From positions 1-57,183 of the forward strand of contig PMVV01000438.1 of NCBI GenBank assembly GCA_003166475.1: a DNA stretch of 57,183 nt. Reading direction: 5' to 3'. Source of the DNA: Bryobacterales bacterium. GTDB taxonomy: Bacteria; Acidobacteriota; Terriglobia; Bryobacterales; Bryobacteraceae. Made by a program: the position numbers and the translations under genes. Each line of letters starts with the position of its first letter. The first letter of the stretch is position 1. Positions 1,654 to 10,915 of this stretch are shown here, piece after piece. Below the pieces are notes generated by a model, which was not told where the DNA came from, ran no database searches, and saw only the letters and a list, made by a program, of their open reading frames with translations.

Positions 1654-1700
1654 GGCTGAAGCCCCGCGCACTGAAAGGCCGCCCTGCGTTAGATTATATT
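1654..1700. repeat. REP-like palindromic repeat, copy A (GGCTGAAGCCCCGCGC...GGCCGCCCT...)
   Basis: Shares an identical 16-mer and a similar about 30-nt tail with copy B at 2330. It contains the hairpin GGCT-GA-AGCC. Confidence 0.6.
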
Positions 1701-1724
1701 TAGATATAACGCGTAATCGAGATC

Positions 1725-1985
1725 GTGATGCACACAACAAGTCTGCGGAAGGTGGGCGGCTCGGTCATGCTGGCGGTTCCGCCCGCGCTGCTCGATATCC
1801 TGCGTCTCCGGCCGGGAGCCAAGGTGGGCATCGCGGTCGAGAGTGGGCGGCTGGTCGTGGCGCCGCAGAGGCGGCCCCGCTATACGTTGGACGAACTTCT
1901 GGCCCAATGCAACCCCAAAGCTGCGCGCAGCAAGGAAGAGCGCGAATGGCTCGGCAACAGAACCACAGGCGGCGAGTTGCTCTGA
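1725..1985 (+). CDS. mazE: AbrB/MazE (SpoVT-AbrB fold) type II antitoxin
   Basis: 86 aa. The N-terminus LRKVGGSVMLAVPPALLDILRLRPGAKVGI is a typical looped-hinge-helix antitoxin. It overlaps the downstream toxin gene. Confidence 0.8.
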   Translation: MMHTTSLRKVGGSVMLAVPPALLDILRLRPGAKVGIAVESGRLVVAPQRRPRYTLDELLAQCNPKAARSKEEREWLGNRTTGGELL

Positions 1986-2317
1986 TAAAGCGGGGCGAAA
2001 TCTGGTTGGTGGGGCTTGATCCGACCGAGGGACACGAGCAAAAGGGACGCTGGCCGGTCCTGATCGTGTCGCCGGAGGCGTTCAACCGGACGACCAAAGT
2101 GCCCGTTGTTCTCCCGATCACCAGCGGCGGGAATTTCGCGCGGACGGCCGGGTTTGCCGTGCCGCTAACGGGCGCGGGGACCAAAACGGCAGGCATCGTC
2201 CGGTGCGACCAGGCGCGGGCGCTCGATGTTGGCGCGCGCAATGGCAGAAAGTTGGAAAGCGTTCCCGAGGCGATCATGGACGAAGTCCTGGCGAGGGTTG
2301 CGGCGATTTTTGAGTAG
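1946..2317 (+). CDS. mazF: MazF/PemK-family endoribonuclease toxin
   Basis: In-frame ATG at 1946 within ORF 1355..2317. The sequence IKRGEIWLVGLDPTEGHEQKGRWPVLIVSP...LPITS...VRCDQARALD matches the PemK/MazF pattern. There is a 40-nt overlap with the antitoxin. Confidence 0.8.
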   Translation: MARQQNHRRRVALIKRGEIWLVGLDPTEGHEQKGRWPVLIVSPEAFNRTTKVPVVLPITSGGNFARTAGFAVPLTGAGTKTAGIVRCDQARALDVGARNGRKLESVPEAIMDEVLARVAAIFE

Positions 2318-2988: not shown

Positions 2989-4245
2989 ATGAGATTCGTC
3001 TGGCTCGCCTCGATTTTATGGAGCAGCCTGCTCCTGGCCGGGACTCCGGAACAGGAGATGAACGTCAACACACGCTACACGGTGGAGAGCGTGGAGGTGG
3101 CCGGCGACAATCCGGCCGGCATCAGCACGGGCCTGCGCGGCGAGCTGACGCGACTGGTGGGCGCCAAGCTGAATCCGGCCACGCTCGACGATCTGGCGAC
3201 GCGCATCCGGCGCGAGTTGCACGTGCGGGCAGTTACGCATCGCCTGCTGCGCGGGCAGACGCCGGAACACGTGCGGGTGGTGTTTGTGGTGCGCGGGACG
3301 CCGGCGAAATTCGAGGCGTCGGTACCGAAGCTTGTCTACCGCTCCGACGGGGGCTTTTCCGGACTGGCGGAAGGCACTGCCACGGTGGGATCGCAGGCGT
3401 TCACGTTGGGCGGGGTGAGCGACGGCGACGATCTGGCGGAGCGCTATACCGGGATCGTGGCGCGCTACGAGGACAAGCGCCTGGCGAGCGATCGCGTGCG
3501 GTTCCGGGTGGATTTTGCGAGCTATCACGAGCAGTGGAACCAGGCTACCGCGAATGCCCTGGATCAAGCCGGCGCGGAGAGCGACACTTCCGGGATGTAC
3601 CGGACCCGGCAGAATATCGAACCGCTGGTGACGTTCGTGCTCGCCAGAAGCGGTTCGGGGCTCGTGAACCTTACCGTGGGCACCAGTTTTGAACGATTTC
3701 AATCGCAGTTTCCGGCCGCGCGGACGGAGTCCGCCAACGCGATGGTGACTACTCTGCGCTATCATCGGCGCGTGGAGGGTTCCGACGCCAACCAGCAAGA
3801 ATGGGACGCAGGTTACAGCCTGCGCGCGGCCACCAATCTTCTAGGCAGCGATTTCGCCTATGCCCGTCACCTGGGAGACGCGCACTACGTCTACTCCTGG
3901 GGACATAGCCAGTTTGTGGACGATCTGACGGGCGGGGCCATCACCGGGCGCGCGCCGCTTTTCGAACGCTTTATACTGGGTAACAGCACCTTGCTCCGCG
4001 GGTGGAACCGATTTGAGCTGGATCCGCTGGGCGGGGACCGAATGGTGGCCAACACCGCGGAGTACCGGTACCGGCTCTTCGACGTTTTCTACGATTGTGG
4101 GGCAATATGGGACCAGGGCCAGACGGTGGTGTTGCGGCATTCGGCGGGTGTGGGCATCCGGCAGAACGGGATGTACGCGGCGTTGGCATTTCCGATCAAG
4201 GAAGGCCATATTGAACCGGTTTTCATGGTGGGCATGAACTATTGA
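2989..4245 (+). CDS. Omp85/BamA-family (surface antigen D15) outer-membrane protein
   Basis: ORF 2944..4245. The likely start is ATG 2989 (MRFVWLASILWSSLLLAG signal peptide). It has a POTRA-like N-terminus and a beta-barrel C-terminus ending LGNSTLLRGW...GVGIR...VGMNY. Confidence 0.7.
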   Translation: MRFVWLASILWSSLLLAGTPEQEMNVNTRYTVESVEVAGDNPAGISTGLRGELTRLVGAKLNPATLDDLATRIRRELHVRAVTHRLLRGQTPEHVRVVFVVRGTPAKFEASVPKLVYRSDGGFSGLAEGTATVGSQAFTLGGVSDGDDLAERYTGIVARYEDKRLASDRVRFRVDFASYHEQWNQATANALDQAGAESDTSGMYRTRQNIEPLVTFVLARSGSGLVNLTVGTSFERFQSQFPAARTESANAMVTTLRYHRRVEGSDANQQEWDAGYSLRAATNLLGSDFAYARHLGDAHYVYSWGHSQFVDDLTGGAITGRAPLFERFILGNSTLLRGWNRFELDPLGGDRMVANTAEYRYRLFDVFYDCGAIWDQGQTVVLRHSAGVGIRQNGMYAALAFPIKEGHIEPVFMVGMNY

Positions 4246-4899
4246 ATGGCGCAAGCCGGAGCGGACAGACTGAGCCGCGACCGTAAGGAAGCGGTATCGA
4301 TCAGCCGACGGCGCTGGCTTCTGGCCGGTGTGGCTATACCTCTGTCTTGCCTGGGGGCAGCCGAGCGCCTGAGCGTCACCTGGGATGGCGACGATCTGCA
4401 CGTGGCCGCGCCGCAACTGCATTTCCTGGCCGGCAAGCCGCTGGATCGCCTGCGAGACGGCGCGGCGGTGGTGTTCCTGACGCAGTTGACCCTCACCACC
4501 GACAACTTTACGACCAGCCTTCGGCGGACGCCCGAGCGTTTCGTATTCAGCTACGACCTGTGGGAAGAGAAATTCTCAGTGACGAAGCTGGGCGAAGGGC
4601 AGCGGACGGTCGCGCACCTGTCGGCGACGGCGGCGGAGGCCTGGTGCCTGGACAACGTGGCCATCAGCGCCACGGGCCTGCCGCAGGACCGTCCCTTCTG
4701 GTTGCGCTTCGAACTGCGCACGGCCGAACCGAAGGACGAAGCCGCGGTGATCGGGGAGAGCGGCCTGAACCTGACACGGCTCATCGAGATCTTCAGCCGG
4801 CGTCCGCGCGACCAGCAGCCGCAGTGGAACGCGGACGCCGGACCGCTGCGCCTGGGCGATCTGAAGAGGCTGGTGGGCCGCGCCGCGCGAACGCTGTGA
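4246..4899 (+). CDS. Hypothetical exported protein (RRRWLL twin-arginine-like signal)
   Basis: 217 aa. The ATG directly abuts the upstream stop, and its own stop overlaps the kinase GTG (GTGA). I recognise no family. Confidence 0.55.
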   Translation: MAQAGADRLSRDRKEAVSISRRRWLLAGVAIPLSCLGAAERLSVTWDGDDLHVAAPQLHFLAGKPLDRLRDGAAVVFLTQLTLTTDNFTTSLRRTPERFVFSYDLWEEKFSVTKLGEGQRTVAHLSATAAEAWCLDNVAISATGLPQDRPFWLRFELRTAEPKDEAAVIGESGLNLTRLIEIFSRRPRDQQPQWNADAGPLRLGDLKRLVGRAARTL

Positions 4900-6311
4900 A
4901 CCGGCTACGCAACAGGCTGATCGGGATCTTTCTGGCGGCTACTCTAGTGCCGCTAGCCGCCACGCTCTGGATTACAACTTCCCTGCTGGATCGCAGCCTG
5001 AGCTATGCCTCCACAGGGGAACTGGACCGGCTGTCGCGCTCGCTGCAAAAGACCGGCAAAGAGTTGTACCAGCGCGCCTGCGACGCTCTGAAAAACGATG
5101 CGCTGGGCGGACGTGTGGAACCGCTGCGTTACGGCGCGGGCCGGCAGGGCGGGTGGCCGGCGCCGGTGAAGACGTTCTTCGACAGCGGCGACGCCGAACG
5201 TTTCGTCATTTCCGGAAGCGGCGGGGACCGGATCGAATACCTGGCGCGGCGCGGCGATGAGGTATGGCAATGGTCCACCAGCCTGGGCGGCGTGGGTCTG
5301 GACGATCTTTCGCGCGAGATCCGCAGCGCGCGGGAAATCGTGGAAAAGCGGCAATCGCGCGATCTGCTGCGCGGGTTCACGTACACTTATGTGCTGCTGG
5401 CGGCTTCGGTGTGGATCGCATCGCTGGTGCTGCTGGTATATCTGGCGCATCGCATCAGCCGCCCCATACAACAACTGACGGCGGGCCTCGCGCAACTGGC
5501 GGCAGGGGACCTGGCCACGCGCGTGGAAGCGCGCCGCGACGACGAGGTGGGCCGTGCCATGCGCGCCTTCAACGACATGGCGGAGCGCCTGCAGCGCTCG
5601 ACCGAACGCCTGGTATACCTGACGCAACTGGCAAGCTGGCGGACTCTGGCGCGCAAGATGGCGCACGAGGTGAAGAACTCGCTGACGCCCATCCGGCTCA
5701 CCGTGGAGGAGATGCTGGCGCGTTCGGGCGATAGCGACCGCGCGTTCATGGAACAGGCCGCGCAGATCGTGGTGGAAGAGGTGGAGAGCCTGGAACGCCG
5801 CGTGCGTGCGTTCTCGCAATTCGCCGCCGAGCCCGCGGTCGAGCCCGTGCCGCTGGATCTGAATGCGCTGCTGGAAGAGCGCATCGCTTTTTTGAAGAGC
5901 GGGCATCCTGAACTGAGCTACGACCTGCGCCTGGACGCCAGCCATCCCACCGCGCTGGCCGATCAGGATCTGGTGAAAGGCATTCTGACGAACCTGCTGG
6001 AAAACGCCGCGGAAGCCGCGGGCGCGGGCGGGCGCATTCTGGGCATTACCGCGGTGCACAACGGCCACGCGCTGGTGGAAGTACACGATTCCGGCCCGGG
6101 CCTGAGCGAACAGATTCGGCAATCCTTGTTTCAGCCTTCCATTTCGTTCAAGAAGGGCGGTATGGGACTGGGGCTTTCGATCTCCCGTAAGGGCGCCCTG
6201 CTGACGGGCGGCGATATCGTGCTGGTGAAAGGAGAACTGGGCGGCGCCGCATTCCGCGTGCTGCTGCCCGTCGAGCGAAATGGCATCCAAGCGCATTCTG
6301 ATCGTGGATGA
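4896..6311 (+). CDS. HAMP-domain sensor histidine kinase (NtrY-like)
   Basis: GTG 4896 lies in frame within ORF 4347..6311. It has two TM segments, a HAMP domain, the H-box MAHEVKNSLTPI, the N-box NLLENAAEA, G1 DSGPG and G2 GMGLGLS. Confidence 0.85.
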   Translation: MNRLRNRLIGIFLAATLVPLAATLWITTSLLDRSLSYASTGELDRLSRSLQKTGKELYQRACDALKNDALGGRVEPLRYGAGRQGGWPAPVKTFFDSGDAERFVISGSGGDRIEYLARRGDEVWQWSTSLGGVGLDDLSREIRSAREIVEKRQSRDLLRGFTYTYVLLAASVWIASLVLLVYLAHRISRPIQQLTAGLAQLAAGDLATRVEARRDDEVGRAMRAFNDMAERLQRSTERLVYLTQLASWRTLARKMAHEVKNSLTPIRLTVEEMLARSGDSDRAFMEQAAQIVVEEVESLERRVRAFSQFAAEPAVEPVPLDLNALLEERIAFLKSGHPELSYDLRLDASHPTALADQDLVKGILTNLLENAAEAAGAGGRILGITAVHNGHALVEVHDSGPGLSEQIRQSLFQPSISFKKGGMGLGLSISRKGALLTGGDIVLVKGELGGAAFRVLLPVERNGIQAHSDRG

Positions 6312-7626
6312 CGAAGAGAATATCGGCCGCTCGCTGCGTCTGATCCTGGAGCGCGAGGGCTACTCGATCGCGGTTTGCCGATCCATGCGGGAGTTTCGCG
6401 CGCATCCGGATGTGGAGCGCGCCGACGCGTTCCTGTTCGACGTGCGCCTGCCGGACGGCAGCGGCATCGACCTGCTGCGCTCGGTGCGGCAGAACGGCAA
6501 TCCCGCGCCCGCGGTGATGATCTCGGGGCACGGCACCATCGCGGACGCGGTGGAGGCTACGCGCGCCGGCGCCTTCGATTTTCTGGAGAAGCCGCTGAGC
6601 CGCGATAAGGTGCTGCTGGCCATCAAGAACGCTTTGGAGCACTCCAGCCTGCGCGCGGAAAACGAGCGGCTGCGGGAGTTGGTGGGGGTCAGTCCGAAGA
6701 TGATCGGCTCCAGCCCGGCGTTTCAGCGCGCCGTGGAGCAGGCCAGCATGGCGGCGCGCTCGGATGCGCGCGTGCTGCTGATCGGCGAATCGGGCTCGGG
6801 CAAGGAACTGCTGGCGGCGCACATCCATCAGAACAGCCCGTTCGCCGCGGGACCGTTTGTGAAGGTGAATTGCGCGGCGATCCCGACGGAATTGATCGAA
6901 ACCGAATTGTTCGGCCACGAGAAGGGCGCGTTCACCGGCGCGGCCGGGGCGCGGCGCGGCAAGTTCGAGCTGGCCGACAGCGGCACGATATTCCTGGACG
7001 AAGTGGGCGATCTGCACGGGGCATCGCAGGCCAAGCTGCTGCGCGTACTGCAAGAGGGCGAATTCCACCGGGTGGGCGGCGAGCAGACCATTCGCGTGGC
7101 GGTGCGCGTGGTTTCGGCGACCAACCGCGATCTGAGCGCGCTGGTGGCGCAGGCGAAGTTTCGCGAGGACCTGTATTACCGGCTGAGCGTGGTGCCCATC
7201 CGGGTGCCGTCGCTGCGCGAGCGGCCGCAGGATATCAAGCTGCTGGCCGAGTATTTCCTGGACGATTTCTGCGCGCGCAACAATTTCAAACAGAAAAAGC
7301 TGGACGATTCGGTTTACCCGATTCTGGAGAGCTACCCGTGGCCGGGCAATGCGCGGGAGCTGCGCAACGCCATCGAGCGCATGGCCATTCTGACGGCGGG
7401 CGAGCGGCTGACGCGCGAGGCGATCCCGGTGGAGATTCGGGTGCAGCGGGAGCCGGGGCCGCGGTCGAGCGTGCAAGAGGCGCGGGAATCGGCGGAGCGC
7501 GATCATATTCTGCGGGCGCTGGAGGAGGCGAATTGGAACGTGTCGGGGGCGGCGCGGGCGCTGGGGATGGAGCGGACGAATTTGCATAAGCGGATTCGGG
7601 CGCTGGGGTTGAGCAGGGGGAAGTAG
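6280..7626 (+). CDS. Sigma-54-dependent response regulator (NtrC/NtrX family)
   Basis: REC domain with ILIVDDE and FLFDVRLPDGSG. AAA+ domain with GESGSGKE, GAFTGA and ESELFGHEKG-like motifs. C-terminal Fis-type HTH. It overlaps the kinase by 32 nt. Confidence 0.9.
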   Translation: MASKRILIVDDEENIGRSLRLILEREGYSIAVCRSMREFRAHPDVERADAFLFDVRLPDGSGIDLLRSVRQNGNPAPAVMISGHGTIADAVEATRAGAFDFLEKPLSRDKVLLAIKNALEHSSLRAENERLRELVGVSPKMIGSSPAFQRAVEQASMAARSDARVLLIGESGSGKELLAAHIHQNSPFAAGPFVKVNCAAIPTELIETELFGHEKGAFTGAAGARRGKFELADSGTIFLDEVGDLHGASQAKLLRVLQEGEFHRVGGEQTIRVAVRVVSATNRDLSALVAQAKFREDLYYRLSVVPIRVPSLRERPQDIKLLAEYFLDDFCARNNFKQKKLDDSVYPILESYPWPGNARELRNAIERMAILTAGERLTREAIPVEIRVQREPGPRSSVQEARESAERDHILRALEEANWNVSGAARALGMERTNLHKRIRALGLSRGK

Positions 7627-7750
7627 GGGGGAGGCCGCCGTTTCGGCCGGCTTGAGATAGGGCCTTCTTTGACCCTCGCGGGAGGCGCCGTGTTGTAAGC
7701 TGGGAAAGGCTGCACCCTGCAGTTGTCGGCAGAGGGCAAAGGGCATTCCA

Positions 7751-9037
7751 ATGGCACGGATCGAAGGCATCCGCATACACAACTTCCGGGCTTTACGCGA
7801 CGTAACTCTGGGTAGGGTTTGGAGTCAACAGAAGCCCGAACCACTCACGCCGATGACCGCGGTCATCGGGAAGAACGGCTCTGGAAAGAGCACCCTGTTT
7901 GACGCGTTTGGCTTTTTGGCAGATTGCCTCAGAACAGGGGTAGAAGAGGCATTCGACGCACGCGGGCGAGGCGGCTTCGGCCGGGTTAAGTCGCAGGGCT
8001 CCGAAGGACCAATCGCGTTTGAGGTCTACTACAAAGAAGAGGGGAACGCTCGTCCGATCACGTACGAACTCTCGATTGATCGGGATGCATCTGGCCGTCC
8101 TTATGTGGTGCGGGAGAGGCTGCGACAGAGACGCAAGGGACAGAAGCACGGCTGGCCGTTCTCTTTCCTAATACTTAATGAGGGAAAGGGGGTTGCGTGG
8201 AGGGGTGAGACGGAAGGACAGCAGATCGAAGAAGGCCAACTTGATCTCCTCCATCTGATGGAGACCGTCAAACATACTCAGGATAAGGAAGAAAGCAGAG
8301 AAACCGAAGTCGTGGAGCTCGATGATAAACGAAAGCTTGGGATTGCGACGCTGGGATCGTTGAAGCAGCATCCGCGCGTTTCTGCGTTCAGGCGCTTCAT
8401 AGAAGGCTGGTACCTAAGCTATTTCAATCCCGATGCCGCTCGAAGCCTCCCGCTGGCCGGACCCCAGAAGCACTTGAACGTTCATGGAGACAACCTGGGG
8501 AATGTCGTGCAGTTCATGGAGCGGGAGTACCCTAAGCAGTTTCGCGCGATCCTTGAGCGCATTGCCGCGAAGATCCCTGGAATTACCAGAATAGATACGG
8601 AGAGAACGCCCGATGGGAGATTGCTTCTTCGTTTCAACGATAGAGGGTTCCAAGATCCCTTCTACGCCCAACAGATGTCTGACGGAACGCTGAAGATATT
8701 TGCGTACCTTCTGCTCCTGGAGGACCCCACACCACCGCCGTTCTTGTGTGTAGAAGAGCCGGAAAATGGCTTGTACCACAAGCTGCTGGAAACTCTCGCC
8801 AAGGAATTGCGTGAGCATGCTACCGGCCGGAAATCCGGATCGCAGGTATTTGTTACCACTCATCAGCCGTATTTCGTCGATGCCCTGTCCCCAGCAGAGG
8901 TTTGGATTCTGGAGAAGGCGGCGGACGGATTCGCCGTGATCAGGCGAGCGAGTGACGATGCGACCGTAGATAATATGGTGAAGGAAGGGCTGCCGCTGGG
9001 CGGGCTATGGTATAGCGACTATCTGGACGCGAGGTGA
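7751..9037 (+). CDS. ABC/SMC-type (AAA_15/AAA_21-like) ATPase
   Basis: Walker A GKNGSGKST, signature-like MSDGTLK, Walker B FLCVEEPENGLH and H-loop VTTHQP. A long insert sits between Walker A and the signature. GC is lower than in the flanks. Confidence 0.85.
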   Translation: MARIEGIRIHNFRALRDVTLGRVWSQQKPEPLTPMTAVIGKNGSGKSTLFDAFGFLADCLRTGVEEAFDARGRGGFGRVKSQGSEGPIAFEVYYKEEGNARPITYELSIDRDASGRPYVVRERLRQRRKGQKHGWPFSFLILNEGKGVAWRGETEGQQIEEGQLDLLHLMETVKHTQDKEESRETEVVELDDKRKLGIATLGSLKQHPRVSAFRRFIEGWYLSYFNPDAARSLPLAGPQKHLNVHGDNLGNVVQFMEREYPKQFRAILERIAAKIPGITRIDTERTPDGRLLLRFNDRGFQDPFYAQQMSDGTLKIFAYLLLLEDPTPPPFLCVEEPENGLYHKLLETLAKELREHATGRKSGSQVFVTTHQPYFVDALSPAEVWILEKAADGFAVIRRASDDATVDNMVKEGLPLGGLWYSDYLDAR

Positions 9038-9042
9038 GCGTA

Positions 9043-9690
9043 ATGCACGTCGAGATACTTGTAGAAGACCTATCTGGCAAGAAGGCTCTGGACGTTCTGG
9101 TCCCTAAAATAATTTCCGGGCAAGATACGTTCCGCGTCCATTCCTATAAGGGGCTCGGGCGCATTCCCCAACACATGAAAGACGCAACCGATCCCAGCAA
9201 ACGGATCCTCTTGACAAATCTGCCTAAATTGCTGAAAGGGTATGGGCGGACTTTCCAGGGATACCACCCAAGTTACAAAGCTGCGGTGGTCTTGATCTGC
9301 GACCTTGATGAGAGAAATCTCCAGGACTTTCTGGAAGAGTTGCGCGTCATCCTGAACGCATGCCACCCGAAGCCTGAAGCTCGCTTTTGCATTGCGATTG
9401 AGGAGGGCGAAGCCTGGTTCTTGGGAGACCTGCCGGCAGTCAAGTCGGCGTATCCCCAAGCCGACGATCAGGTTCTCATCTCCTACGTCAACGACAGCAT
9501 TTGCGGAACCTGGGAGAAATTAGCAGACGCCGTTTACCCTGGCGGGGCGAAGGCCCTGTCCCTGAAGGGCTGGCAAGCTGTGGGTGCGGAAAAGGCCCGT
9601 TGGGCAGACGACATATCTCCCCGGATGGACATTGAAAGCAACAAGTCGCCCAGCTTTTGTTCTTTTCGGGACGGGATTCGGTCGCTGTAG
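9043..9690 (+). CDS. DUF4276-like protein with a Toprim-type acidic pattern
   Basis: ATG 9043 is preceded by a GAGGTGA Shine-Dalgarno site (alternative start GTG 9034, overlapping the ATPase stop). Motifs MHVEILVED, LICDLDE and AIEEGEAW are present. The family assignment is from memory of the motif pattern and is not a search result. Confidence 0.7.
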   Translation: MHVEILVEDLSGKKALDVLVPKIISGQDTFRVHSYKGLGRIPQHMKDATDPSKRILLTNLPKLLKGYGRTFQGYHPSYKAAVVLICDLDERNLQDFLEELRVILNACHPKPEARFCIAIEEGEAWFLGDLPAVKSAYPQADDQVLISYVNDSICGTWEKLADAVYPGGAKALSLKGWQAVGAEKARWADDISPRMDIESNKSPSFCSFRDGIRSL

Positions 9691-9795
9691 AGTACCCTCG
9701 GTGCTTCGGCCAACCGAAGGCGGTCTATGGCGGCCCGAATCGCGGCGCGAGCTGAAAGCCGCAAGCGCGCCTGAGGCGACGCTGGAGCCGATAGC

Positions 9796-10029
9796 ATGTC
9801 GCCACCTGGCGAAAAGGCCCAGCGCAGGTATCCACCGAAGATATACGAGGACTTGCGGCGAGCCCTCCGGGTGCCTGACAACATAACTGACGAAGAGATA
9901 CGCCTCGCGATGCTCTGGAAGTGGGGTCACCTTCGGAAAGAACGTATTCCATCCCATCATGAAGCGCTGATCTCCTGGGCTGCACTTTCACCGGGTGTGT
10001 CCGGATGCGCGGCCGCCGGTGAATCGTGA
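9796..10029 (+). CDS. Orphan small ORF, possibly a gene fragment
   Basis: 77 aa. The first about 50 aa look protein-like (PPKIYEDLRRALRVPDNITDEEIRLAMLWKWGHLRKERIP). There is no recognised family and no clear RBS. Confidence 0.25.
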   Translation: MSPPGEKAQRRYPPKIYEDLRRALRVPDNITDEEIRLAMLWKWGHLRKERIPSHHEALISWAALSPGVSGCAAAGES

Positions 10030-10069
10030 GACAATACCGCTGGTTGGGTGGAGCATTAAGGAGGCGAGA

Positions 10070-10915
10070 ATGCCCGTAGTTTCGCGAAGAGAGTTCTTGC
10101 TGGGTGCGGCGGCAGGCACCGCTTTGGCCGCGCGGGAGCTGCGCGGCAATCCGCTGGGCATGCCGATCGGATGCCAGACCTATCCCGTCAGGAACATGAT
10201 CGCCAAGGACTTTCCCGGCACGATCAAGCAGCTTGCCGAGGCTGGGTTTCAGACCATCGAGCTGTGCTCGCCGGTGGGTTATGCCGATTCGGGTTTTGCC
10301 GGTCTCGCCAAATATAAAGGGGCGGAGCTGCGGAGAATGCTGGGCGATCTGGGAGTCAAGTGCGAGAGCTCTCACTTCGATATCAAAGAGCTGCGGGAGA
10401 ATCTGCCGGGCAGAATTGCTTGGGCCGTCGATCTGGGCCTGACGCAGATGATGGTGCCCAGCCTGGACGGGCCGCGGAATCCGACTCTCGACGATGTGAA
10501 GCGGGCGGCCGACGAATACAACAAGATGGGTGAACAGTCGGCCAAGGCGGGAATCCAGCAGGGCCTTCACAACGAGGGGTTTGAGCTATCCATGGTGGGC
10601 GGCAAGCGGACCTACGACCTTTTGCTCGAGATGCTCGATCCAAAGGTGGTCAAGTTTCAGTTCCAGGTTTCGACGATCAGCAGGGGCTATGACGCAGCGG
10701 AGTACTTCACGAAATATCCTGGCCGCTTTGTGTCGATGCACGTGCAGGACTGGTCGGCGGTAACCAGGAAGACGATGGCTGTGGGGCAGGGCACGCTCGA
10801 CTGGCGGAGGATCTTTACCGCGGCTAAAACGGGGGGCCTCAAGAATTACTTCGTGGAGATGAACCTGGACCTGATGAGGGCCAGCGTTCCTTTCCTTCGG
10901 CAGATGCAGGTCTGA
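10070..10915 (+). CDS. Sugar-phosphate isomerase/epimerase (xylose-isomerase-like TIM barrel), TAT-exported
   Basis: ATG 10070 follows an AAGGAGG site. SRREFLLGAAAG is a twin-arginine signal. The TIM-barrel pattern IELCS...HNEG...VEMN is present. Confidence 0.75.
   Translation: MPVVSRREFLLGAAAGTALAARELRGNPLGMPIGCQTYPVRNMIAKDFPGTIKQLAEAGFQTIELCSPVGYADSGFAGLAKYKGAELRRMLGDLGVKCESSHFDIKELRENLPGRIAWAVDLGLTQMMVPSLDGPRNPTLDDVKRAADEYNKMGEQSAKAGIQQGLHNEGFELSMVGGKRTYDLLLEMLDPKVVKFQFQVSTISRGYDAAEYFTKYPGRFVSMHVQDWSAVTRKTMAVGQGTLDWRRIFTAAKTGGLKNYFVEMNLDLMRASVPFLRQMQV

Follow-up and report, generated by a model that had tools for sequence, protein, structure and literature searches.

A horizontally acquired, stand-alone HEC-01 cassette in a Bryobacterales contig, a likely conflict system built as a split OLD nuclease

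HEC-01 (Hma-embedded candidate 01) is described in PADLOC-DB v2 (Payne et al. 2024 preprint) as an ATP-binding cassette (ABC) ATPase paired with a TOPRIM protein that has an OLD-like metal site. Mad3-4 and AbiL are likewise listed among the ABC-ATPase/TOPRIM systems. DUF4276, the family to which the smaller protein described below is related, is placed in the Toprim superfamily by earlier work, and the similarity is reported in published structural alignments; the MADS system contains a DUF4276 homologue, Mad4. Both Mad3 and Mad4 are genetically required for MADS defence, and deletion of mad5 is possible only when mad2 or mad3 is deleted as well, which points to a related ATPase arm that is toxic when unchecked. 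A 2026 survey of BREX reported OLD-ABC ATPases with nucleases, TOPRIM the most prominent, in at least 1242 taxa of BREX or BREX-related systems, and read the TOPRIM-linked OLD-ABC modules as back-up suicidal effectors. Here we describe a two-gene HEC-01 cassette at positions 7632-9738 of contig PMVV01000438.1 (GCA_003166475.1) from a Bryobacterales bacterium; the window, the whole stretch that was analysed, comprises 57,183 nt of the forward strand. The segment is likely a horizontally acquired conflict cassette, namely an OLD nuclease split into an ATPase (gene 1) and a small Toprim nuclease (gene 2).

Both proteins match the HEC-01 models of PADLOC. Model HEC-01A (PDLC04182) aligns with residues 1-427 of gene 1 over profile positions 1-402 of 406 (654.7 bits, E 1.3e-197), and model HEC-01B (PDLC04205) matches gene 2 over its full length (308.2 bits, E 6.8e-93). 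The cassette is a member of this catalogued candidate anti-phage system. An earlier note on this DNA, made from the letters alone, had described an ABC ATPase with a DUF4276-family Toprim-like partner and had compared the pair with OLD, PARIS and AbiL. This interpretation is correct at the level of architecture, and the profile searches that the note proposed for both proteins returned AAA_21 in Pfam (1.6e-48 for gene 1) in addition to the PADLOC matches; the exact family, however, is HEC-01 and not PARIS, AbiL, MADS or Gabija.

Gene 1 carries the full motif set of an OLD-type ABC ATPase, comprising Walker A, signature, Walker B and H-loop. Walker A, MSDGTLK and VTTHQP begin at residues 40, 309 and 368, as the note had read them. 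Walker B is also present, but the string quoted for it was one letter wrong, the true sequence being FLCVEEPENGLY at residue 331, and Walker A lies about 260 residues from the signature rather than about 280. The block of residues 41-60 is 91% conserved across homologues. In a profile-profile comparison (hhalign), the gene 1 family matched the ATPase half of OLD over 353 columns (98.9%, E 1.1e-17). The AlphaFold2 model of gene 1, built from a shallow alignment, is poor (pLDDT, the predicted local distance difference test, 58.5), and its Foldseek matches to PtuA, Ts OLD, GajA, RecN and Rad50 serve as a coarse class assignment only. Model confidence is low across residues 141-200, the most variable part of the protein; within it, identity at residues 161-180 falls to 0.35 for the main clade and 0.02 for a divergent one, versus 0.8-0.9 in the catalytic core. 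This patch may form a sensor or specificity surface. The divergent ATPases (L023, L025, L030, L035, L036, L045, L056, L057 and L070) are 54-66% identical to gene 1, and their divergence is concentrated at residues 141-200; the nucleases paired with them are 60-68% identical to gene 2, a similarity equal to that of the main-clade nucleases. Members of both clades are found inside BREX, and the pattern suggests either that modules have been shuffled or that the ATPase insert evolves fast.

The search for distant relatives of gene 2 gave 1138 representatives at E <= 1e-3, from which an alignment of 69 sequences, 32-57% identical to gene 2, was drawn. All 69 match DUF4276 (best E 1.3e-14). Only six residues are invariant in this alignment, E8, D87, D89, E123, W125 and K184, and the motifs that the note had singled out, VEILVED (with E8), LICDLDE (with D87 and D89) and EEGE (residues 120-123), are as it gave them. 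The sole recurrent secondary Pfam families among the relatives are DUF3226, RloB, OLD-like_TOPRIM and DUF4435, and the secondary PADLOC matches are to RT-Toprim, AriB and the uncharacterised candidates PDC-M31B and PDC-M38B. We know of no relation between DUF3226 and Toprim. The AlphaFold2 model of gene 2 (pLDDT 80.6, predicted template modelling score 0.78) consists of a core of about 120 residues with the order b1-a1-b2-a2-b3-a3-b4, followed by a helical C-terminal half, and places E8 after strand 1 and the DxD after strand 3.

The relation of gene 2 to OLD was found by profile-profile comparison. Against the single P2 Old sequence, hhalign searches with the gene 2 profiles were not significant (1.4% and 4.1%), and a homologue search with the Old C-terminal fragment returned five fragments only. 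The match became significant only once an OLD-family alignment of 11 sequences (P2 Old and ten phage or plasmid homologues) was used, the gene 2 family then aligning with the OLD Toprim core at 82.6% (P = 9.6e-6). The alignment sets E8 against E398, YKGLG against DGKGS, and D87xD89 against D453xD455 of P2 Old. In the controls, the reversed template scored 0.2%, 30 column shuffles at most 0.3%, and unrelated profiles at most 1.1%. Because gene 1 matches the ATPase half of OLD and gene 2 matches its Toprim core, the pair can be read as a split OLD-like nuclease. On these sequence profiles the cassette is an OLD nuclease divided between two proteins, with the outcome of the structure search described below as a caveat.

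Relatives of gene 2 number 3945 among 90%-identity clusters and are encoded in at least 561 species genomes. Eighty homologous loci were fetched, from more than 15 bacterial phyla and from Methanosarcinaceae and Methanovorans archaea. In every one of them the ATPase gene lies directly upstream of the nuclease gene. Across this range identity to the window proteins is 60-76% for gene 2 and 54-90% for gene 1, with means of 64.6% for the nuclease and 74.7% for the ATPase, and the cassette has a lower guanine-plus-cytosine (GC) content than its flanks in 58 of 69 loci. About 14 of the 80 copies lie within another system, either type-3-like BREX or Hma. The order in BREX is BrxC, PglX, [pair], helicase, PglZ, BrxA; in Hma the pair separates HmaB from either HmaA or HmaC. 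The other 57 loci have mostly housekeeping neighbours, with a minority next to IetAS, JetA, type I or III restriction-modification, TOTE, SoFic or PDC candidates. One BREX locus (L009) holds a second embedded gene besides the HEC-01 pair, a YhcG/DUF1016 PD-(D/E)xK nuclease gene between BrxC and PglX (4443-5558). In L023, an IetA-like AAA ATPase and an IetS-like subtilase, forming an IetAS pair (4749-8394), lie directly upstream of the HEC-01 pair, and VirJ and lysyl-phosphatidylglycerol synthase genes lie downstream.

The cassette is foreign in composition to the contig in which it stands. Among stretches of 1940 nt in the window, the one that starts at 7751 is lowest in GC, at 0.5515 versus a window mean of 0.657 (standard deviation 0.029), about 3.6 standard deviations below. 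GC at third codon positions is 0.63-0.65, versus 0.75-0.86 in most confidently called neighbouring genes, and A/T-ending codons make up 36.6% of the cassette versus 19.2% in ten neighbouring genes (Fisher p = 5e-21). The enrichment is 2.5-4-fold for each of ATA, AAA and TTA, the figure for TTA being based on two codons. The atypical composition reported in the note is therefore borne out by the window minimum and the codon counts, and its spot values were exact (0.517 at 8161-8220 and 0.70 at 7381-7440).

A related contig, L094, found by looking up the flanking response regulator, encodes an identical response regulator protein in flanks that are 92-96% identical, and has no cassette. Homology between L094 and the window runs at 95.7% identity up to 7631 and resumes at 9739; in between, L094 has 411 unrelated bp that encode a 62-codon open reading frame (ORF) without a Pfam match. 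A guess that this ORF is antitoxin-like was dropped, there being no Pfam support for it. The end of the same ORF persists in the window (ARAESRKRA*, Table 1) and is the footprint of the replacement event. The span given by the note, 7627-9720, agrees almost exactly with the replaced segment. The cassette ends showed neither direct nor inverted repeats of more than 9 nt, nor an integrase or transposase, and no end motif is conserved across phyla. The cassette is horizontally acquired, as the note had proposed: its composition is foreign, it is absent from L094, it has left a truncated ORF as a footprint, and its identity to copies in other phyla is high.

Such a history could also fit a selfish maintenance or self-spreading module, toxin-antitoxin-like or homing-like, that does not protect its host. 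The pair is a compact two-gene unit without integrase, transposase or terminal repeats, shows high identity across phyla, is inserted between genes of other operons and has replaced another small ORF in this genome; moreover, Pfam AAA_21 bears the historical label 'AbiEii toxin / type IV TA'. However, the insertion sites are unrelated between genomes, so that there is no common target sequence, nothing antitoxin-like was seen, and the homologous architectures of known function (OLD, Gabija and PARIS) are defence systems, all of which makes a selfish module quite improbable. A narrower proposal, that the ATPase-Toprim pair itself promotes insertion and spread of the cassette in a homing-like manner without an integrase, draws on a bare two-ORF unit, free of repeats and recombinase, found at 60-90% identity in bacteria and archaea, on its landing between genes of other operons (BREX, Hma), on the precise replacement seen here, and on an ATPase that is more conserved than the nuclease, which would be unexpected for an arms-race sensor. 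It is very improbable, since the unrelated insertion sites mostly point away from it.

Several results weigh against a conflict cassette of the split OLD type. The Pfam DUF4276 (PF14103) match of gene 2 itself, 23.8 bits over profile positions 1-189 of 192, falls below the gathering score of 30.2; the membership claimed in the note is secured at the level of the family, through the 69 relatives. Foldseek searches of the gene 2 model against PDB and the viral library BFVD gave nothing at E <= 0.001; the top 50 include no Toprim protein, the matches being generic three-layer alpha/beta folds such as Arf GTPases and flavodoxins (TM 0.2-0.4). The structural comparison that the note had proposed thus did not recover the Toprim fold, and its Toprim claim is carried by the controlled profile-profile comparison but not by structure. 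This negative is weak because the gene 2 core is small, a loop is disordered and a large helical domain follows. Sequence and hidden Markov model searches against PDB chains (phmmer and hmmsearch; ORF2, A1 and A4) gave nothing meaningful either, and a promoter scan of 7500-10100 found no match to the sigma-70 consensus. The immediate neighbours are housekeeping genes in this window and at about two-thirds of the homologous loci. Finally, the HEC-01 representative assayed in E. coli by Payne et al. protected against no phage tried. A later study, however, reports protection by another representative against one or more of T4, T5 and T7; the published phage phenotypes conflict, and both come from representatives other than this copy. 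The statement in the note that DUF4276 has no defined function is right as regards biochemistry, but Mad4 is needed for MADS defence and HEC-01 assays exist.

These phenotypes bear on the main rival, according to which the pair serves methylation-based immunity (BREX, Hma or MADS-like) as an accessory or back-up effector, here orphaned from its partner and either working with unlinked modification genes or idle. The copies inside BREX (PglX-[pair]-helicase-PglZ) or Hma operons, 14 of 80, fit such a role, as do the back-up function proposed in the 2026 survey, the dependence of MADS defence on the related Mad3 and Mad4, with Mad3 needed for the lethality of losing mad5, and the stand-alone clone that gave no protection in E. 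coli. Most copies, however, this one among them, lie next to housekeeping genes with no DNA methylase gene close by, and one cloned HEC-01 protected by itself. Besides, the present copy is undamaged and retains every catalytic residue, and its gene 1 protein recurs unchanged in 151 blocks of the contig collection. An orphaned accessory effector is therefore unlikely, though the readings of the pair as a selfish module or as repair genes are much less likely.

As a split OLD-like conflict system, the cassette would most likely act as follows. Genes 1 and 2 would be co-transcribed, and the ATPase would assemble with the nuclease and hold it in check, by analogy with OLD, Gabija and PARIS. The variable insert at residues 141-200 may sense an invader-derived cue, upon which ATP binding or hydrolysis would license a metal-dependent Toprim centre formed by E8, D87, D89, E121/E123 and perhaps K184. 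This centre would cut nucleic acid, either DNA or RNA, and the cleavage would destroy the invader or abort the infection. It is from such analogies that we infer the trigger, the substrate, the complex and the defence phenotype.

The cassette of this genome lies between a sigma-54 response regulator gene and a gene for a TIM-barrel enzyme, and its closest genome matches are in Solibacteraceae and other Acidobacteriota metagenome-assembled genomes. The contig collection contains an identical ATPase in 151 of its indexed blocks, and each of the 23 contigs that were read has the same gene order (histidine kinase, sigma-54 response regulator, cassette, AP_endonuc_2, AMP-binding, HEAT, EAL/HDOD and flagellar genes); the cassette is therefore fixed in one population. 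A defence-island context was considered for this window and rejected: the neighbours are housekeeping genes and PADLOC found no other system in the rest of the window, only generic matches of sigma-54 activators to RtcR/PspF models and of MotB to ZorB models. The cassette here is a fixed stand-alone copy outside any defence island.

Housekeeping neighbours at many copies would also suit a DNA-repair pair analogous to RecF or RecN (ABC ATPase) with RecR (Toprim), and weak SMC_N/RecF matches on the gene 1 N-terminus and the RecN and Rad50 hits of Foldseek point in the same direction. Yet the scores with the RecF and SbcC models fall far short of the cut-offs, and the best matches are to defence families by a wide margin. 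The foreign composition, the presence or absence of the cassette in close strains, and its patchy, cross-domain distribution at 60-90% identity are likewise at odds with housekeeping, and a repair function is the least probable of the explanations, to be regarded as extremely improbable.

The surroundings of the cassette vary at other points. A MazE/MazF (PemK) toxin-antitoxin pair is encoded at about 1700-2317 (+), about 5.5 kb upstream. It is strain-variable, being absent from L094 and present in L083 at 3956-4545, and in L083, L084 and L086 a ResIII/DEAD fragment of 212-235 residues lies directly upstream of it. The MazEF site is a second strain-variable spot within the same 10 kb as the cassette. 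Another indel lies just downstream of the cassette, where 175 bp in the window (9827-10001) correspond to 1.8 kb in L094 (7846-9646). The L094 segment encodes a 303-residue ORF with a signal-peptide-like N-terminus, and a 77-residue ORF of the window (9796-10029) spans the indel junction; neither has a Pfam match, and copies of the cassette in other genomes lack the latter as a neighbour.

The features of the locus are listed in Table 1. Both genes are on the same strand. Gene 1 ends with a TGA at 9035-9037, and gene 2 could start at GTG 9034 (218 residues) or at ATG 9043 (215 residues), the latter 5 nt past the gene 1 stop; these positions and the GAGGTGA motif are as the note had reported. 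ATG 9043 is taken as the real start because the alignment of each of the 80 homologues begins at residue 1 of the protein that starts there, and most of them are in a frame that differs from any overlapping GTG. An intergenic spacing of 7-17 nt is kept in 80 of 80 loci, and the two genes are probably translationally coupled. The last eight residues of the ATPase, YSDYLDAR (421-428; window 9013-9034), are about 95% conserved in both ATPase clades, which exceeds most of the catalytic core. Their codons also carry the gene 2 Shine-Dalgarno sequence, so what is constrained could be the protein (as a partner interface), the RNA or the two together. The hairpin downstream of gene 2 was not called by the terminator scan and may be a transcript end or a stabiliser. 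The leader motif TGTAAGCTGGGAAAGGC is common only to the closest acidobacterial copies (L002, L003 and partly L008), not to those of other phyla; it is a candidate lineage-specific promoter or regulatory element, unrecognised by the sigma-70 consensus scan.

Table 1 Coordinates of the features of the HEC-01 cassette (window numbering)
Feature	Position	Strand	Basis or remark
Strain-variable segment carrying the cassette	7632..9738	.	Replaced by 411 unrelated bp in related contig L094
Leader motif TGTAAGCTGGGAAAGGC	7694..7710	+	40-55 nt 5' of gene 1; upstream-sequence comparison
Gene 1, OLD-type ABC ATPase (HEC-01A), 428 residues	7751..9037	+	PADLOC, Pfam, hhalign
Walker A GKNGSGKST, residues 40-48	7868..7894	+	Sequence motif
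Most variable ATPase patch, residues 141-200	8171..8350	+	Insert between Walker A and signature; least conserved 161-180
ABC signature-like MSDGTLK, residues 309-315	8675..8695	+	Sequence motif
Walker B and D-loop region FLCVEEPENGLY, residues 331-342	8741..8776	+	Sequence motif
H-loop VTTHQP, residues 368-373	8852..8869	+	Sequence motif
Shine-Dalgarno of gene 2, GAGGTGA	9031-9037	+	Overlaps last sense codon and stop codon of gene 1; GAGG 8 nt before ATG 9043
Gene 2, DUF4276-family Toprim-like protein (HEC-01B), 215 residues	9043..9690	+	PADLOC, Pfam matches of relatives, AlphaFold2, hhalign
E8, invariant Glu at end of strand 1	9064..9066	+	Aligns with P2 Old E398
D87-L-D89, invariant DxD at end of strand 3	9301..9309	+	Aligns with P2 Old D453-C-D455
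E120-E121-G122-E123, acidic cluster after strand 4	9400..9411	+	E123 invariant, E121 at least 90% conserved
K184, invariant Lys, helical C-terminal half	9592..9594	+	Alignment of relatives
Hairpin CTTCGG-CCAA-CCGAAG	9704..9719	+	14 nt past gene 2 stop, without T-run; read from sequence
Remnant, last 9 codons and stop (ARAESRKRA*) of 62-codon L094 ORF	9745..9774	+	Comparison with L094

The HEC-01 family and its architecture are already published; the novelty of this copy is low, and the finding leaves the understanding of the class unchanged. It provides a clean, well-bounded example of HEC-01 from an uncultured Acidobacteriota population, standing alone and with its replacement footprint mapped, and it shows, independently and with controls, at the level of sequence profiles that HEC-01 is an OLD nuclease in split form. 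E8, the DxD, E123 and K184 are marked out as residues to mutate, and the conserved ATPase core with its variable patch at 141-200 offers a concrete lead on HEC-01 biology.

Among the described systems, Gabija likewise combines an OLD-type ABC ATPase with Toprim, but both are fused in GajA, which works with the GajB helicase; the GajA match is partial (42.6 bits), no helicase gene adjoins the cassette, and membership in Gabija was rejected. AbiL (AbiLi and the RloB-like AbiLii) also pairs an OLD-type ABC ATPase with a Toprim nuclease, and was rejected on a partial AbiLi match of 87 bits and the lack of an RloB or AbiLii match to gene 2 itself. Mad3 and Mad4 of MADS are, as here, an AAA_21-type ATPase and a DUF4276 protein. 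Gene 1 reached 105.8 bits against the NCBIfam MAD3 cut-off of 420, and 98 with PADLOC mad3, and gene 2 has no mad4 match; MADS membership was rejected, and no mad genes, including mad6-8-like ones, were found elsewhere in the window. PARIS (the AriA ABC ATPase and the DUF4435 Toprim protein AriB) has the same split two-gene architecture and gene order, and its ATPase combines a conserved core with a variable surface, as in gene 1. However, AriB is a DUF4435 protein and gene 2 a DUF4276 protein without a DUF4435 or AriB match; one of the 69 relatives matches AriB weakly. The AriA-specific model PDLC02979 gave a partial match of 61 bits versus 655 for HEC-01A, and PARIS was rejected on these grounds. 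A further model, PDLC02980, matches gene 1 at residues 35-377, far below HEC-01A; it is taken as a generic AAA_21 profile because it has the same length (304 positions) as Pfam AAA_21 and matches the same residues. We know of no Ocr trigger or tRNA cleavage for HEC-01.

The cassette shares with catalogued HEC-01 systems the adjacent, same-strand ATPase and TOPRIM genes and full-length matches to both models, but this copy is not embedded in Hma or another defence system. With OLD (the class 1 P2 Old; Ts and Bp OLD) it shares, on profile evidence, a homologous and colinear ATPase half and Toprim core, with the catalytic E and DxD in register. The domains are fused in OLD and are separate proteins here, where gene 2 adds an insertion of about 16-20 residues between strand 2 and helix 2 as well as a helical C-terminal half of its own.

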